64,000 nucleotides of DNA. Source: Patescibacteria group bacterium (GTDB taxonomy: Bacteria; Patescibacteriota; WWE3; UBA101185; UBA10185). The notes beneath the pieces were generated by a model. The model did no database searches, was not told the DNA's origin, and was given only the letters and a program-made list of their open reading frames with translations. Of this stretch, positions 37 through 51,815 are shown piece after piece (position 1 is the stretch's first letter; every line of letters starts with the position of its first letter). The stretch spans positions 65,357 through 129,356 of the forward strand of contig JBMORU010000001.1 in NCBI GenBank assembly GCA_049322215.1, in the 5' to 3' direction. Made by a program: the position numbers and the translations under genes.

Positions 37-2328
37 TTAAGAGTTTATGTTTATTTCTAAAGACTCTTCTTTAGCTTGAGCAGTTAAATTCAAAGGCCGT
101 TTATTAGAGTTTAATATTATTTCTGCAACACTATCTAATAGTTCACTTTCAATTGTCCTGCGTAATGCACGTGCACCATATTCGTCTGAATAACCTTTTT
201 CCAGTAAAAGTTTTTTTGCTTCTGCGGTTACTTTTAGCTTTATACCTTGTTTTCTCAGGTGATCGAGTACATCTTTTAGCAGTACATTTAATATCTTCTT
301 TTGATCTACTTTTTTAAGTTTTTTGAAAACAATTACTTCATCAAAACGATTGATTAGTTCAGGCTTTAGTATTTTCTTTAAATTGTTCCTTAAGTGTTTT
401 TCTATTCTATCGTCAGATATAGGCGCGTTATCAAAACCTATTGTGTTTTCATGAGTTATTTTTGTACCTAAGTTACTCGTTAATACCACTACGGCGTTCG
501 AAAAGTCAAAAGTAGTGCCTTTAGCATCTACTAATTCACCCTCTTCCATAATTTGAAGCAGAATATTTAATACATCATGGTGAGCTTTTTCAATTTCATC
601 AAATAAAACTACTGAGTTAGGGTTTGCATCTATTTTTGTGGTTAATTCACCACCTTCTCCGTATCCTATATATCCCGGAGGAGCCCCCACCAAACGTGCA
701 ATTGTGTGCTTCTCGCCAAAGTCAGACATATCAAGTCGAATTAAAGAATGCGGCCCAAAAGCTTCAGCAGCAAGTAGTTTAGCTAACTCTGTTTTACCAA
801 CCCCTGTAGAACCCAAAAACAAAAAATTACCCAAAGGCCGTTTTTTTGCTCTTAAACCAAGTTTCCCTCTAATTAAAGCTTTAGCTACAGTATCTACAGC
901 ATGATTTTGTCCAATTAATTTCTTTTTTAGTTGCGAAGATAAATTACTCAAACCACTTAAATTTTGCGTGACATTTGACCCTGCATCCTCAGCAACATCA
1001 AACAGCACATAATCTATATCTTTTGTTGATAAAGTAAGTTTTGCTTCATTATCTGAGTTTACAAATAAGTCTTCTTCTAAATGTTTTAAACGGGTTTCTA
1101 GTCTACGAAGTTTAGTGCGTGTCTGTAGTGCAGAGTCATAATCAGAATTATCAAGCAATTTATTAATTTGAGCTCTCAAAAGAAACTCTTTACTTACTAA
1201 TTCCTTATAGCTATCAGGAACACGCTTTTCTTTTACTAACAAATTTGCACAGGCTTGATCTAAAATTTCCAAAGCTTTTTTTGGAAATCTATCTTGTTTT
1301 AATTCCCGCTTAGTAGCCTCATAGGCATGTTTAAAAACTTTACTTGGAATTTTAACATTGTGATGAGCACCTAATATTGCACTTTTTACCGCAAGTATTT
1401 CCATTGTTATCTCCTCGGAAGGTTCATTAACATTTATTAAAGCAAAACCATCGAATATTTGGTCGTTTTCAGAAGAAACCTTATCGTAAAAGGAATTGTT
1501 AATAATTGTTATCATAGGAATGCCTGCAGTTTGTAAGTCAGATTTTAAAATGTTAAATAGCAACGGAACTGTTAAACCTACATTTGTACTTATAAATATA
1601 TTCTGAACGTCTTTTATATACAAAATAACCTTTTTAAAGCTTCTTAGCTCTTCCAGCAATGTTGCTAAACCGTACTCTAACCCTTCTCTATTAGAAATAG
1701 ATGTTATAAAGCCAATTAAATCAAACTCTATAACTTCGTAGTCAACAAGTGCCGGAGGTACTTCCATTAGTTGAATCTGATTAACAAGTAATTCAACCAA
1801 TGTACGCTTGCCTACACCATAATCACCTACAATTAACGGGTTAAAGTCTTCTTTCTGCAGTAAAACTGCAATTATATCTTCGATTTCTTCCCTATATACT
1901 AGGTCTACACGAGCGCTAGATAACTTACGAGAGGTCAAATTTTCACCAAAAGTATCTAATAAAGGCGTTTTCTGAGAATCATGTGAATCGCCACTGTGAG
2001 GAAATGTGCTAAGTTTTACTAATTCACGCTTAATTAGCTCAAAATCAGGAGAATTAGTTAACGAAGCAAGAGCTAATAACAAATGCTCAGTACCAACATA
2101 AACATGACCCAGCTTTAAAGCGTGATAATAGGCTTCTTCCACCATATTATCCATATTTACAGCTCTAGCTCTATTTATGTTTAAACCTGGAATATTCCTT
2201 AGTATCAAAGACGCTAAACCCGAAGTGTTTTGCATTGAATCAAGAACAACTCCAACATCAATGTTAGAAACACCTTCAAGATCACTTAATATGAACTTAG
2301 CTCTTTTTGTTAGCCTGTTTAAACTCAT
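37..2328 (-). CDS. clpC: ClpC/ClpB-like AAA+ chaperone (Clp ATPase subunit); NBD1 Walker A degenerate, NBD2 canonical
   Basis: 763-aa ORF. N-terminal Clp_N-like repeats. NBD2 has Walker A GSTGVGKTELAK and Walker B VVLFDEIEKAH. NBD1 P-loop reads GDYGVGKRTL, which is degenerate. Confidence 0.8.
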   Translation of the reverse strand: MSLNRLTKRAKFILSDLEGVSNIDVGVVLDSMQNTSGLASLILRNIPGLNINRARAVNMDNMVEEAYYHALKLGHVYVGTEHLLLALASLTNSPDFELIKRELVKLSTFPHSGDSHDSQKTPLLDTFGENLTSRKLSSARVDLVYREEIEDIIAVLLQKEDFNPLIVGDYGVGKRTLVELLVNQIQLMEVPPALVDYEVIEFDLIGFITSISNREGLEYGLATLLEELRSFKKVILYIKDVQNIFISTNVGLTVPLLFNILKSDLQTAGIPMITIINNSFYDKVSSENDQIFDGFALINVNEPSEEITMEILAVKSAILGAHHNVKIPSKVFKHAYEATKRELKQDRFPKKALEILDQACANLLVKEKRVPDSYKELVSKEFLLRAQINKLLDNSDYDSALQTRTKLRRLETRLKHLEEDLFVNSDNEAKLTLSTKDIDYVLFDVAEDAGSNVTQNLSGLSNLSSQLKKKLIGQNHAVDTVAKALIRGKLGLRAKKRPLGNFLFLGSTGVGKTELAKLLAAEAFGPHSLIRLDMSDFGEKHTIARLVGAPPGYIGYGEGGELTTKIDANPNSVVLFDEIEKAHHDVLNILLQIMEEGELVDAKGTTFDFSNAVVVLTSNLGTKITHENTIGFDNAPISDDRIEKHLRNNLKKILKPELINRFDEVIVFKKLKKVDQKKILNVLLKDVLDHLRKQGIKLKVTAEAKKLLLEKGYSDEYGARALRRTIESELLDSVAEIILNSNKRPLNLTAQAKEESLEININS

Positions 2329-3727: not shown

Positions 3728-4135
3728 TTAATGCACATAGGCTGCGTGTTTGGCAAAAAATGTTTGAGCAGATGAAAATCCCGGAGGATCAAAAGCTTCA
3801 AACACTTGCCTAAAAGTGAATCCCATGTTTTCACCGTCTTTTAATGCAAGGCGAAAATTACCCAGATATCTAACAAAAAACCTAAAAATCAAGGTGTGTA
3901 TAAATATAACACCAGGACTTTTGAAGTTTCCTTTTACCTGTAGGTTATTAACTAGCTCTTCAAATTCGGGATTGCTTAGTAAACCACGTAGATAAAAGGT
4001 GAGAATTTGGTTGTACCGGCGTGCTGTAACTAAATCAAACACAACCAGTATTGGGTTTCCGTCCAGATCGGGTATAGAAAAAGAATCACCCTCTTTCGCG
4101 AGCCTATAAATGCGTTTAGGATCGTATTTGTGCAT
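3728..4135 (-). CDS. hypothetical protein (135 aa) co-directional with and immediately downstream of 5S rRNA
   Basis: ORF with an AAGGAGAG Shine-Dalgarno 6 nt upstream of the ATG (reverse complement of 4138-4150) and a terminator right after the stop. No recognisable family. Confidence 0.5.
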   Translation of the reverse strand: MHKYDPKRIYRLAKEGDSFSIPDLDGNPILVVFDLVTARRYNQILTFYLRGLLSNPEFEELVNNLQVKGNFKSPGVIFIHTLIFRFFVRYLGNFRLALKDGENMGFTFRQVFEAFDPPGFSSAQTFFAKHAAYVH

Positions 4136-4315
4136 TTGTCACTCTCCTTTTGCATTTGTATATAACGTAATTGCCACAATCTTAGCACAGTTAAAAAAAA
4201 TCGCCCTTGTGTTGGCGATAAAAAACTTATGTATACAATTCCGGTTAGAATATAGTTATCCACTAGGTCATCGAAGAGACTGTGGGCACTTTGCTTACAC
4301 AAAACACGCACAGTC

Positions 4316-4428
<113 letters not shown>

Positions 4429-4614: not shown

Positions 4615-7640
<3,026 letters not shown>

Positions 7641-7912
7641 AGAGAATACGCAATTTATATTCAGAGAACACAAATCACGGTATATATTAAAGTCTCGTTG
7701 ACTTTTTACCTTAGTTTTAAAACATAAAGTAAAAAGCGTTTGAGTGACTTTTTGCTATTTGCCTAATGCAAATAAAGAATAAGTCATTTATTCTATATTA
7801 AGTTTACAAAGTACCTCTTTTTACAGAGTCAAAGTTAAAAACTTAATAAACTATATTAAGTTCTTAAATTTAACTACGTACCCAAATTTACAAGCTAAGC
7901 TATGCGATAACT

Positions 7913-7989
7913 TGGTGGACCCGACGGGAGTCGAACCCGTGACCTCCGCAGTGCAAATGCGGCGCTCTAGCCAACTGAGCTACAGGCCC
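7913..7989 (-). tRNA. tRNA-Ala (anticodon TGC), CCA encoded, G3:U70 identity pair present
   Basis: Reverse complement GGGCCTGTAGCTCAGTTGGCTAGAGCGCCGCATTTGCACTGCGGAGGTCACGGGTTCGACTCCCGTCGGGTCCACCA folds as a cloverleaf. Anticodon loop is TTTGCAC. Confidence 0.9.
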
Positions 7990-8201
7990 TCGCCTGTTTA
8001 GTTAAAATATTAATGTTAAGTTGGAATTAAGAGCTTCCGTCAAAAAGCTTTAAACCCGAAAAATCGAGTAGAAGGTAAATTCCCATTCCGTAGGAGTAAA
8101 TTATCACTTTGAGTAAACAATGTCAATAAAATTAATGGGTCTAAAGTTTATAGCAAAAAACTAAAAACTTTAAACCCAAATGTGTCAGAAATGGTTATTG
8201 A

Positions 8202-8588
8202 CTACGCAAGAACAAGCTTACCGTGCCGAGAACTTTTAACAGTATAAGTTTTGCCGCACAAGTGCACAAGCTCCCCTTTAGAAATGTGTGCCATTCCGTA
8301 AACAGTTTGCGCACCACCGCTACCACCAACTTGAACAGAATACTGGCTGTAACCGTTTGAACTTCGAGTATGCAACTGAACTGGCCCCTTATAGGACTGA
8401 AGCTGCAATGACCGACGATCAGTAAAACGCACCCAAAAAGTATCTCCATCGTAAGTTACTGAGTCACCATAGTTTAAACGTTTTGGTCCAAACAATGCTG
8501 TGGGGAGTTTTACGCCATCAACATAAACGTTATTGTACTTTTTTTGCTGACCATTACCTTGCCCTGTCAAAGTATCTTTCTTAGACAT
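8202..8588 (-). CDS. hypothetical protein (128 aa) embedded in the 16S-23S spacer
   Basis: ORF preceded by a strong SD (TAAGGAGAGACA-ATG, reverse complement of 8589-8603). Gly/Ser/Tyr-rich with no family recognised. Locally GC-richer than the surrounding spacer. Confidence 0.55.
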   Translation of the reverse strand: MSKKDTLTGQGNGQQKKYNNVYVDGVKLPTALFGPKRLNYGDSVTYDGDTFWVRFTDRRSLQLQSYKGPVQLHTRSSNGYSQYSVQVGGSGGAQTVYGMAHISKGELVHLCGKTYTVKSSRHGKLVLA

Positions 8589-8747
8589 TGTCTCTCCTTA
8601 GATAAATATTGGGATTTGTAAATTTCCTATGTTATAGGGTAAGGGCTATGGTAAAACATTGTATTGGCGTTGTCAATTAAGCAAAAACTATTACATACTC
8701 TTTACATATTCATGTTAATATATTAAAACGTATATGCCCTTTAGTAA

Positions 8748-8824
8748 GGGCTCGTAGCTCAGTTGGTTAGAGCGCTCCTCTGATAAGGGAGAGGTCGATG
8801 GTTCGAATCCATCCGAGCCCACCA
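8748..8824 (+). tRNA. tRNA-Ile (anticodon GAT), CCA encoded, on the strand opposite to the rRNA genes
   Basis: GGGCTCGTAGCTCAGTTGGTTAGAGCGCTCCTCTGATAAGGGAGAGGTCGATGGTTCGAATCCATCCGAGCCCACCA gives a clean cloverleaf with anticodon loop CTGATAA. Confidence 0.9.
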
Positions 8825-8861
8825 AGCTGTAAATCCACTAAACAAGTTAATATAAAACTTT

Positions 8862-8886
8862 AAAAAAAAGAGCACCGGAGTGCTAA
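8862..8886. terminator. Bidirectional hairpin terminator between tRNA-Ile (+) and the NUDIX gene (-)
   Basis: aaaaaaaag-AGCACC-gga-GTGCT-aacttttattt. The GC hairpin is flanked by an A-tract on one side and a T-rich tract on the other. On the minus strand it reads hairpin followed by TTTTTTTT. Confidence 0.5.
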
Positions 8887-8889
8887 CTT

Positions 8890-9303
8890 TTATTTGTTGT
8901 TAATAAATTCTAAAACAGGAGAAGCTAGATCGTAATAGACAAAATTAGAAAATAAGTCAGGTTCTACCCATCTAAACTGTTCAACTTCAGAAGTATCAAT
9001 TAACAATGTATATGCTTCAGACACTAGAGTACAAGCAAAGTAATGCAATACTACTTTTTGTGAGGGAATAATAATTTCATGAATTTTGCGAACTACCGAA
9101 ACTTCATGTCCAGTTTCTTCGTATGCTTCACGTACTGCTGCCTCTTCATGAGTTTCATCATCATAAACTTTACCCCCAGGAAATGTCCAGGAGAGTCTAT
9201 TTTCTAACCCATGTAATGAGGGATCATAGCGTTTTACTAACAAAACGCTGCCTGTAGGGTTTTTAACTACAGATAAAGCTACTTGTGTTTGATTATCTTC
9301 CAT
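8890..9303 (-). CDS. NUDIX hydrolase
   Basis: 137 aa with a Nudix box GGKVYDDETHEEAAVREAYEETGHEV (GX5EX7REUXEEXGU). Confidence 0.8.
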   Translation of the reverse strand: MEDNQTQVALSVVKNPTGSVLLVKRYDPSLHGLENRLSWTFPGGKVYDDETHEEAAVREAYEETGHEVSVVRKIHEIIIPSQKVVLHYFACTLVSEAYTLLIDTSEVEQFRWVEPDLFSNFVYYDLASPVLEFINNK

Positions 9304-9570
9304 AAATTATCTTAATTTCTATATCGTTTACACTTAGCGCTTCAAGGAATAATAAGCAAAAAGAATGTCTCATTTAAGGGTTTAGGCTCACCCTTGAACC
9401 TGCTCATCCAACCCCGTGAGGGGGGTGGTGTACAACTACTACCTATGAGCTGCTCGATAGTAGCGTATGTTTTTTCTTTCATCGGTCTTTTTAAGACACA
9501 CTGTCAAACACAAAGGATTGACCATCTTAAAAAGGTTCCGCGATCAAAAACATAATATTCTTTCTCTTTA

Positions 9571-11035
<1,465 letters not shown>

Positions 11036-11116
11036 AAACATTCTTTTTGCTTGCCATTCCTCGAAATAACAAGCATTCTTGAATACTAAGTAATATTAAA
11101 AAATCAAAGAGCAAAT

Positions 11117-15969: not shown

Positions 15970-16111
15970 TTTTTAATCTCCTTATGATCTGTATATGAAA
16001 ATGAAACGATATTGCTGTAAATTATACTATAGGTCTGCATAGTTGGCAATAGAAAACACTCTTACAACAAGCTTATAAAGGTTTTCTACAATTAGCTTCA
16101 AATTACTATAA

Positions 16112-18994: not shown

Positions 18995-19103
18995 TCTCCT
19001 AACATAACGTTTTTGGTATGTTAGTTGGATTATAACCTTATAGTTGAAATAATAACAAATTGTATATATAATTGTACCCTATAGCAAAATCACGTTAAGG
19101 AGA

Positions 19104-32221: not shown

Positions 32222-33217
32222 TTATTGCCCACTAACGCAGAAAGGCGTGTATTGTAGCCCATTTTGCGCGTACAGCCATTCGGTAAAAGACAACTGTGCA
32301 TTTTGCTCTTGTGCTTGTTTAAAGGCTTGAGCGTTTTCAGTGCCAATCCAGCGCCAATGCCAAGTTTCTGCATTTACGCCAGTTTTGCACTCATCACCCA
32401 TAGGATAAGGCATTACAAACCCAAACAAATGAGCATTGCTCTGCAAAAAATTTCCGGCAGGGCTTTGCGCAAAATCATTGGTCCAACCCGCAGCACCATT
32501 AAAATCTTCAATGCAAACGCCACTACTACAGTAGTTTGTAGTGAAATCTAACGCCAAACCAGTATGGTGCTCGGTATGCCCTGGACGCAGCGAGTATTCA
32601 TCTGCCAATGGATCTAGTCCAAGCCAGTACTCGTAAGCTGTTCTCTGACGTTCAACCCCACGGCAAGCTGTGCGCAAAGCCAGGTCAATTCCTTGTTCCT
32701 TGGCAGCGGTTACCAGCGCAGTCAAATCGGGAAGCATATCGCTTACAATATACTGTGCATCCAAAACCTCGCGAATACCTGTAGCAGATGCAGGCTGTAA
32801 ATGCGCTGCAACCGACAGGTCACCGTCAGGACATTGAATTTGCTCAGGAGTTAAACGATAATGTCGATCAACAACAATCAAACGAAAGTCGTTTACATAA
32901 ACCGAGTCCTGCACAGCATCAGGGTAACGCGCCCATTCTGTAAGTGTGGGTGCTGTGATGCTGTCTACCGTAGATGAAGTATCTGCAGGCAACTCATTAG
33001 TGCTATTTTCTGCAGAAATACTGTCACCTTCAACAACAAGGGTTGGTGTAGCAATGGCAAGGGTTTTTTTACTTTCTCCCATAGGTGCAACTAAAGTTTC
33101 CTCTTCACTTCCTGGAAACTCAGGCGCCGATAGAGAAGATAAAACAAAGCGTCCCACTAAAACCACGACTACAATGCCCACTAAAATCGCGACATGTTTT
33201 GCTTTCAAGTATTTCAC
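32222..33217 (-). CDS. Membrane-anchored D-alanyl-D-alanine carboxypeptidase-like zinc peptidase (M15/VanY, LAS superfamily), GC-richer
   Basis: 331 aa. N-terminal TM, S/T/E-rich linker, then PGHTEHHTGLALDF (H-x6-D metal site) and a later H. Confidence 0.6.
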   Translation of the reverse strand: MKYLKAKHVAILVGIVVVVLVGRFVLSSLSAPEFPGSEEETLVAPMGESKKTLAIATPTLVVEGDSISAENSTNELPADTSSTVDSITAPTLTEWARYPDAVQDSVYVNDFRLIVVDRHYRLTPEQIQCPDGDLSVAAHLQPASATGIREVLDAQYIVSDMLPDLTALVTAAKEQGIDLALRTACRGVERQRTAYEYWLGLDPLADEYSLRPGHTEHHTGLALDFTTNYCSSGVCIEDFNGAAGWTNDFAQSPAGNFLQSNAHLFGFVMPYPMGDECKTGVNAETWHWRWIGTENAQAFKQAQEQNAQLSFTEWLYAQNGLQYTPFCVSGQ

Positions 33218-33320
33218 TTGTCACACTCCTTATGTTCAATATTTATTAGAGATTTGAGCAATTATACGGTAACTTAAGCTTAATTTCAACACTATAGGTC
33301 TAGTTGATAGAATCCCCCAC

Positions 33321-44176: not shown

Positions 44177-44247
44177 TAGAAAATCTCTCCTTATGTGCTT
44201 ATTTGTTAATGGAAGGATTATAACACACTATAGGGTCATTTGGATGC

Positions 44248-48169: not shown

Positions 48170-48246
48170 TGGTGCCAACGGGTGGAATCGAACCACCGAC
48201 CTGACGCGTATGAAACGTCCGCTCTAACCGACTGAGCTACGTTGGC
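48170..48246 (-). tRNA. tRNA-Met (anticodon CAT), elongator-type acceptor; could alternatively be a lysidine-modified Ile2
   Basis: Reverse complement GCCAACGTAGCTCAGTCGGTTAGAGCGGACGTTTCATACGCGTCAGGTCGGTGGTTCGATTCCACCCGTTGGCACCA. Anticodon loop TTCATAC. Pairing 1G:72C. Confidence 0.8.
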
Positions 48247-49569: not shown

Positions 49570-49653
49570 AAATACTATATTAACCTAATATAATTGGATT
49601 TAAAAAACTTCTTTGGTTGCGGGGCCCGGATTTGCACCGGGACCTTCAGATTA

Positions 49654-49727
49654 TGAGCCTGACGAGGTACTATTCCTCCACCCCGCGTCGTTAAGTAAAG
49701 AATGCATATTACAATGCGTGGGTAGTG
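49654..49727 (-). tRNA. Initiator tRNA-fMet (anticodon CAT), C1:A72 mismatch, CCA encoded
   Basis: Reverse complement CGCGGGGTGGAGGAATAGTACCTCGTCAGGCTCATAATCTGAAGGTCCCGGTGCAAATCCGGGCCCCGCAACCA. It closely parallels the E. coli tRNA-fMet ends (CGCGGGGTGGAG...CCCCGCAACCA). Confidence 0.85.
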
Positions 49728-51643: not shown

Positions 51644-51739
51644 TTCTTTCTCCTTTTATCTAACAGGGATTTGATAGCGCTATTATATTATAAGTTTTAG
51701 GTAAAGGCTATAGGGCACTGATGATAAAATAAAGTAAGC

Positions 51740-51815
51740 TGGTGGGTGATCCTGGGCTCGAACCAGGGACCGCTCGTGTATAAGACGAGTGCTCTACCAA
51801 CTGAGCTAATCACCC
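51740..51815 (-). tRNA. tRNA with anticodon TAT (UAU), formally tRNA-Ile reading AUA
   Basis: Reverse complement GGGTGATTAGCTCAGTTGGTAGAGCACTCGTCTTATACACGAGCGGTCCCTGGTTCGAGCCCAGGATCACCCACCA. Perfect acceptor, D and T arms, 5-bp anticodon stem CTCGT/ACGAG and loop CTTATAC. Confidence 0.75.

Follow-up and report, generated by a model that had tools for sequence, protein, structure and literature searches.

ORF128, a probable orphan gene in the gap of a split rRNA locus of a Patescibacteria bacterium

[quoted passage not shown] The rRNA locus of this lineage appears to have been broken into separate transcription units, and ORF128 would occupy a permissive gap made by this break-up of the rrn operon, with a function unrelated to that of its neighbors. 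An earlier sequence-only reading of the 64-kb stretch of DNA analyzed here (the window) had called attention to this ORF; its coordinates, its length, and its strong Shine-Dalgarno (SD) sequence, an AAGGAG at 5 nt from the start codon, were all as that reading had given them.

A split rRNA locus and its conservation in a relative

The 16S and 23S genes are 1941 bp apart (7631-9571), and the gap holds two protein genes, one encoding a Nudix hydrolase and the other being ORF128 (Table 1). In the canonical rrn spacer, as outlined for E. coli in PMC5179076, the order is 16S-tRNA-Ile-tRNA-Ala-23S. The locus studied here shares with this arrangement both tRNA species as well as boxA-like elements in the 16S leader and ahead of the 23S gene, but differs from it by an inverted tRNA-Ile, two protein genes, two terminator-like hairpins, and an internal promoter, and does not appear to yield a single precursor. 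Brewer et al. (bioRxiv 10.1101/705046) call rRNA genes unlinked when the nearest ends of 16S and 23S are over 1500 bp from each other; they report such genes to be common and phylogenetically coherent in Patescibacteria, with most of the unlinked pairs surveyed spaced by over 6 kb. With its protein genes between the rRNAs and a distance above 1500 bp, the ORF128 locus falls under this definition, although its rRNA genes stay adjacent and co-oriented, separated by the inverted tRNA-Ile, the terminator candidates, and a second promoter. The fine structure of the split locus and its conservation in the relative described below were worked out here and do not come from Brewer et al.

Table 1. Features of the split rRNA locus and of ORF128, with positions in the window
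Feature	Position	Strand	Remarks
16S rRNA gene	9572-11036	(-)	
Nudix hydrolase gene, 137 aa	8890-9303	(-)	PF00293, 2e-20; directly downstream of 16S
Two-way terminator candidate	8871-8884		GC-rich palindrome AGCACCGGAGTGCT with flanking A- and T-runs; z = -3.5; between Nudix gene and tRNA-Ile
tRNA-Ile(GAU)	8748-8824	(+)	Inverted with respect to 16S, 23S, and tRNA-Ala; divergent from ORF128
Candidate ORF128 promoter	8648-8676	(-)	TTGACA-17 nt-TACCAT; 10/12 consensus positions, a pattern match only
Shine-Dalgarno AAGGAG	8594-8599	(-)	5 nt 5' of the ORF128 ATG
ORF128, 128-aa orphan CDS	8202-8588	(-)	ATG start; GenBank MFZ5424225.1, 'hypothetical protein ACOZAO_00310 [Patescibacteria group bacterium]'
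Terminator-like 18-bp hairpin, then UUAAUUUUAUU	8136-8178	(-)	Starts 24 nt past the ORF128 stop
Candidate tRNA-Ala-23S-5S promoter	8098-8126	(-)	-35 TTGACA (8126-8121), 17-nt spacer, -10 TAATTT (8103-8098); downstream of ORF128
Conserved start-of-transcript (+1) block ACGGAATGGGAATTTACCTTCT	8070-8091	(-)	21 identical positions in a 23-column local alignment with L004
Weaker hairpin	8023-8060	(-)	Second motif copy 8043-8060 paired with 8023-8041; -11.5 kcal/mol, z = -1.9; 3' arm conserved in L004
tRNA-Ala(UGC)	7913-7989	(-)	Strand shared with 23S
23S rRNA gene	4615-7630	(-)	
5S rRNA gene	4314-4427	(-)	

The boundaries of the transcription units were derived from sequence alone. In a co-transcribed spacer, the tRNA genes lie on the rRNA strand and neither terminators nor promoters interrupt the transcript. 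Here, as in the relative, tRNA-Ile lies on the opposite strand, and candidate interruptions were found at the sequence level at 8871-8884, 8178-8136, and 8126-8098. Because a two-way terminator candidate follows the Nudix gene, tRNA-Ile is inverted, and a hairpin follows ORF128, the gap is read as three or four putative units and not as a co-transcribed spacer. The first would comprise the 16S gene, preceded by its own candidate promoter TTGACT-17-TATCTT (11174-11146) and a canonical boxA TGCTCTTTGA (11113-11104), together with the Nudix gene, and would be closed by the two-way terminator. The second would be tRNA-Ile alone, on the opposite strand, and the third tRNA-Ala-23S-5S, with its own conserved promoter and boxA-like leader. 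Between the second and the third, ORF128 would form a self-contained monocistronic cassette made of a promoter-like site, the AAGGAG, the ORF, and a hairpin with a U-tail. The description of the ORF as lying between tRNA-Ala and tRNA-Ile holds insofar as both genes flank it, but tRNA-Ile is on the other strand and the rRNA gap also holds the Nudix gene. Its supposed expression from within an rRNA unit is not supported, given the inverted tRNA-Ile, the two-way terminator candidate, and the conserved tRNA-Ala-23S promoter downstream of ORF128.

The two copies of a repeated motif, correctly described before as lying outside the ORF and past its stop, occupy positions 8043-8060 and 8163-8180, where they form the 5' arms of two hairpins on the minus strand; no copies beyond chance occur elsewhere in the window. 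One of them provides the 5' arm of the hairpin at 8136-8178, which has a predicted stability of -23.1 kcal/mol (z = -7.2) equaled in none of 200 shuffles. This hairpin, which is AU-rich, may alternatively be a stem involved in RNA processing and not a terminator. Inside the second hairpin, at 8035-8028 and ahead of tRNA-Ala-23S, lies the boxA-like element GCTCTTAA.

The relative is an 1841-bp Logan contig (L004), reached via the Nudix neighbor (P0007). Its Nudix gene (249-677) is 47% identical and occupies the same position directly downstream of 16S, and it is followed, in the same order as in the window, by an inverted tRNA-Ile(GAU) (684-759, minus strand), a gap of ~500 bp, tRNA-Ala(UGC), and 23S. 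Since the inversion of tRNA-Ile is conserved in L004 despite a Nudix identity of only 47%, it is an old feature of the lineage. A promoter and leader region is conserved as well (window 8126-8023, minus strand; L004 ~1117-1215), in which the distance from TTGACA to the conserved block is exactly 29 nt in both sequences and the -10 box, 17 nt after TTGACA, reads TAATTT in the window and TATCTT in L004. The conserved block shared by the two sequences reads ACGGAATGG(G)AAT.TTACCTTCT (8091-8070 in the window), and a second conserved block, 3' of this +1 block, contains the boxA-like element. Three other Nudix homologs (P0008, P0009, and P0010) were found in unrelated contexts, only P0007 on L004 sharing the locus, and a scan of GTDB genomes with the Nudix neighbor retrieved only an unrelated Omnitrophota match.

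Several other observations concern the surroundings of the 16S and 5S genes. The Nudix gene (8890-9303) matches the PADLOC candidate-defence model PDC-S07 (1.5e-17), which may reflect general Nudix similarity only. Upstream of it, the 3' flank of the 16S gene contains a conserved block (~9345-9407, minus strand; L004 82-147) that includes a small hairpin AGGGTGAGCCTAAACCCT and may serve in processing or termination at the 3' end of 16S. Another Logan contig, SRR32167788_444531 (L001 1-407), joins the 3' part of an archaeal-type SSU gene to the 16S end and spacer of the ORF128 bacterium and is a chimera that arose by assembly across the conserved 3' end of 16S. Directly downstream of 5S lies a 135-aa ORF without family (3728-4135, minus strand).

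ORF128 as a probable protein-coding gene

ORF128 is preceded by TAAGGAGAGACA-ATG, and because the TAA within cTAAGGAG is an in-frame stop on its 5' side, no start further upstream is possible. The 3' end of the 16S rRNA carries the canonical anti-SD sequence CACCTCCTT, and 15 of the 31 AAGGAG sites found on both strands of the window are followed, at a distance of 3-10 nt, by the start codon of an ORF of at least 60 aa. The candidate promoter is located ~60 nt 5' of the ATG, and its -35 box overlaps an opposite-strand TTGTCA that faces tRNA-Ile.

ORF128 is unlikely to be a chance ORF. Were it one, non-coding spacer or leader DNA would have stayed open for 128 codons by chance and been annotated automatically, an explanation that we consider improbable given that an ORF of at least 128 aa arose in only 7 of 5000 composition-preserving shuffles (0.14%) of the interval 7990-8747, that its AAGGAG is perfect, optimally spaced, and a specific start signal in this genome, and that a hairpin terminator candidate stands right behind its stop codon. 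The locally raised GC content reported earlier was verified, with 0.434 for ORF128 compared with 0.25-0.35 for the flanking spacer, a difference of 10-15 points, and a median of 0.35 for the window genes; moreover, GC declines from codon position 1 to 2 to 3. Among the six frames, only the annotated one has a positive coding score, the codon log-likelihood reaches z = +3.1 and +3.7 against random stop-free sequence of matched base composition, and ORF128 fits a class of genes with long, clearly real members (see below). By contrast, its absolute codon score (-4.02 to -4.08) is lower than that of every long typical gene and falls inside the range of spurious ORFs overlapping real genes, which average -4.01. 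Codon statistics were consequently discarded as a decisive test, atypical real genes not being separable in this way from spurious overlapping ORFs.

The chance explanation is also favored by the lack of homologs among ~15 billion predicted proteins and by the low confidence of an AF2 single-sequence model (pLDDT 44). The DNA of the locus was assembled in three independent data sets, namely the NCBI MAG (a 1.11-Mb contig) and two Logan assemblies, which speaks for a real gene, as does the one SNP within ORF128, a synonymous change of a His codon. Being the sole population evidence, this SNP can also be counted on the side of a spurious ORF. The lack of homologs also deprives the frame of any evolutionary sign of selection. 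The sequence-only reading had taken the lack of homologs anywhere as a sign of a spurious ORF; homologs are indeed lacking, but this does not tell an orphan gene from a spurious one.

The predicted product of this probable gene has a mass of 14 kDa and a pI of 9.8. The Gly/Ser/Tyr-rich composition ascribed to it was borne out (G 17, S 12, and Y 9, in addition to V 12 and K 11), whereas the supposed Cys pair HLCGK turned out to be a single cysteine, C111. The N-terminus is hydrophilic and no hydrophobic segment was found (maximum 19-residue Kyte-Doolittle mean of 0.4). An AlphaFold-type model, recommended as a check of the structure, was made with AF2 and contains strands only, with a confidence too low to be of use for a fold search. 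These features point to a small, basic, soluble, beta-rich cytoplasmic protein. Our best guess on its activity, inferred only from size, charge, and beta-meander content, is that macromolecule binding is likelier than catalysis.

Homolog searches and the question of a ribosomal role

Comparison of ORF128 with Pfam, NCBIfam, PHROGs, and PADLOC yielded no match above noise, a word-indexed search of 5.8 billion clusters retrieved only ORF128 itself (MFZ5424225.1), and tblastn against 50,697 phage and 72,556 plasmid records gave no match. Two weak similarities stayed below threshold, one to a head-tail attachment family of phages in Pfam (E = 0.02) and one to a head protein in PHROGs (E = 0.13), and the only match of a PDB sequence search was the eukaryotic ribosomal protein eS4 (E = 0.18). 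The sole match of metagenome and IMG/VR scans (L007) was due to chance, an unrelated ORF having provided the seed 8-mer TYDGDTFW. A permissive Rfam search of 7600-9600 detected no RNA family in the ORF128 region, and a literature search on ORFs in CPR rRNA spacers found nothing specific.

When 1.84 billion representatives were scanned in full with HMMER, four weak matches resulted. Three of them were to repeat proteins, one SHIPPO-like and two with Ig repeats, and were spurious, their scores being summed over repeats. The fourth was P0003, a lipoprotein-like protein of 163 aa that contains a beta-meander module twice; ORF128 has a borderline 31-residue similarity with it (42% identity over 38 aa by BLASTP). 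Residues 37-67 of ORF128 (RLNYGDSVTYDGDTFWVRFTDRRSLQLQSYK) align to this module (..IRYGDxEGYxGDxLxIxFTDGxxLxIYAYKY..), with an hhalign probability of 66% and a module HMM score of 22 bits compared with at most 9 bits in 3000 shuffles, both in post hoc comparisons. The C-terminal half does not match a second module of this type, and an internal duplication was rejected (-0.4 bits with the module HMM). The P0003 family is metagenomic, two-module, and lipoprotein-like, without Pfam or other annotation, and ORF128 differs from it by the absence of a signal peptide and of a lipobox Cys, its only cysteine being at position 111. ORF128 is thus an orphan to which no family can be assigned, in agreement with the sequence-only reading, which could not place it either.

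The slot taken by ORF128 in the window contains, in L004, a 62-aa gene of the DUF378 family (PF04070, 5.7e-17). Both genes are small, are preceded by an SD sequence (GGAGG in L004), and lie on the same strand relative to 23S, but the DUF378 product is a hydrophobic membrane protein without sequence relation to ORF128, which is predicted to be soluble and basic. By tblastn, we detected no trace of ORF128 in L004 and no trace of DUF378 in the spacer of the window. As far as this one relative can tell, the gap between tRNA-Ile and the tRNA-Ala unit seems to behave as a permissive, variable slot.

This comparison bears directly on the proposal, also made in the sequence-only reading, that ORF128 is a ribosome or rRNA-processing factor. 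In that case co-transcription would run from the ORF128 promoter, acting as an upstream P1 of the 23S unit, into pre-23S, the hairpin behind the gene would be a processing site, and the basic, beta-rich protein would bind rRNA. Its closeness to tRNA-Ala-23S-5S on the same strand, its high pI, the AU-rich hairpin, which could permit read-through, and the eS4 match, the weakest of the leads, are compatible with such a role, which is nevertheless very improbable. An rRNA-maturation factor would be expected to be conserved with the locus, and the absence of ORF128 from L004, which has the same layout and the unrelated DUF378 membrane protein in the slot, therefore argues against it. Matches to ribosomal or RNA-processing families are absent in Pfam and NCBIfam, and the 23S has a conserved promoter downstream of ORF128. 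The boxA-like element also stands against co-transcription: since it lies downstream of the hairpin, it cannot suppress termination there. We judge it equally far-fetched that ORF128 is a lineage-specific basic beta-protein that newly evolved, without homologs, into a ribosome-associated factor, partly co-transcribed with pre-23S and acting on ribosome assembly or rRNA handling in this CPR bacterium of reduced genome. Overall, a ribosome-related role for ORF128 is unsupported.

Two gene classes, the origin of ORF128, and implications

The 57 genes of the window can be divided according to their start signals. The 14 genes led by an SD sequence (AAGGAG or GGAGG) have a median GC3 of 0.35, against 0.254 for the 43 SD-less genes (Mann-Whitney p = 3e-5). 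A -10-like hexamer occurs 3-13 nt before the start codon in 15 of the 43 SD-less genes and in none of the SD-led ones, suggesting that the SD-less genes endowed with this hexamer are transcribed as leaderless mRNAs. ORF128, with a GC3 of 0.364, belongs to the top four of the genes ranked by GC3, and the other three (231, 331, and 343 aa) also possess the ATAAGGAG SD. Of two codon tables, the typical one and one derived from these long atypical genes, the latter suits ORF128 better, as it does the atypical genes themselves but not the typical genes. A Pfam scan of nine other SD-led genes left seven without family, the two others having weak or strong matches; one exception among the nine is a VanY-domain protein. 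ORF128 seems to belong to a group of real accessory genes of foreign composition and, because it combines a strong SD with a raised GC3, unlike the SD-less and AT-rich majority, it was probably acquired horizontally.

Some of these genes have further features in common. Five of the 14 SD-led genes, but none of the 43 others, have the motif CCTATAG in the 120 nt before them (motif positions 16027-16033, 19078-19084, 33292-33298, 44228-44234, and 51708-51714; Fisher p = 5e-4). This motif could be the site of a regulator; ORF128 has it only in versions with one mismatch. The start regions of the ORF at 3728-4135 (AAGGAGAGTGACAAATG), of ORF128 (AAGGAGAGACAATG), and of the gene at 32222-33217 (AAGGAGTGTGACAAGTG) are closely alike. 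The window also contains a tRNA-Ile with the anticodon UAU (51740-51815, minus strand), which is unusual in bacteria, and two tRNAs with the anticodon CAU (48170-48246 and 49614-49687).

Foreign composition also enters the argument for a mobile origin, according to which ORF128 would be cargo or a remnant of a mobile element or phage inserted beside the tRNA genes. This reading concerns the origin of the gene and overlaps with the main explanation, and we hold it to be quite unlikely. tRNA genes are frequent integration targets, ORF128 stands out from the native majority by its GC3 and its SD, the content of the slot is not alike in the window and in L004, and the sub-threshold matches to phage head-tail and head proteins point in the same direction. 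However, searches of Pfam, NCBIfam, and PHROGs showed the interval to be free of integrase, transposase, and homing-endonuclease domains, the phage and plasmid records and IMG/VR yielded no genuine match, and the 18-nt direct repeats both lie within hairpins on one side of ORF128, the downstream one. We found no flanking repeats bounding an ORF128 insert, the inverted matches between the two tRNAs corresponding to general tRNA similarity. In CPR bacteria, Brown et al. reportedly described in 2015, for example, homing-endonuclease ORFs in insertions of rRNA genes. Like those, ORF128 is a protein ORF physically tied to rRNA genes, but it is placed between genes and not inside an rRNA gene or intron, and it has no LAGLIDADG, HNH, or GIY-YIG domain. 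Of the selfish insertion envisaged in the sequence-only reading, there remain the composition, which suggests an acquired gene, and the varying slot content; the recombinase, endonuclease, or transposase, the flanking repeats, and the phage or plasmid match that would have accompanied it were not found.

Regarded as a probable accessory gene, ORF128 is one more orphan hypothetical gene, situated within an unlinked rRNA locus. Its proximity to the rRNA genes is no evidence of a ribosomal role because the locus seems to be split into insulated units and the content of the slot differs in one relative. More reusable than ORF128 itself are the layout of the split locus, which is conserved, and the division of the genes into two classes. 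The locus offers a compact, testable example of rrn operon break-up in Patescibacteria, with an inverted tRNA-Ile, a Nudix gene apparently captured after 16S, and a second candidate promoter with a boxA-like leader for 23S. The distinction between SD-led, GC3-rich genes and SD-less, possibly leaderless ones could aid gene calling and the detection of horizontal transfer in CPR genomes.
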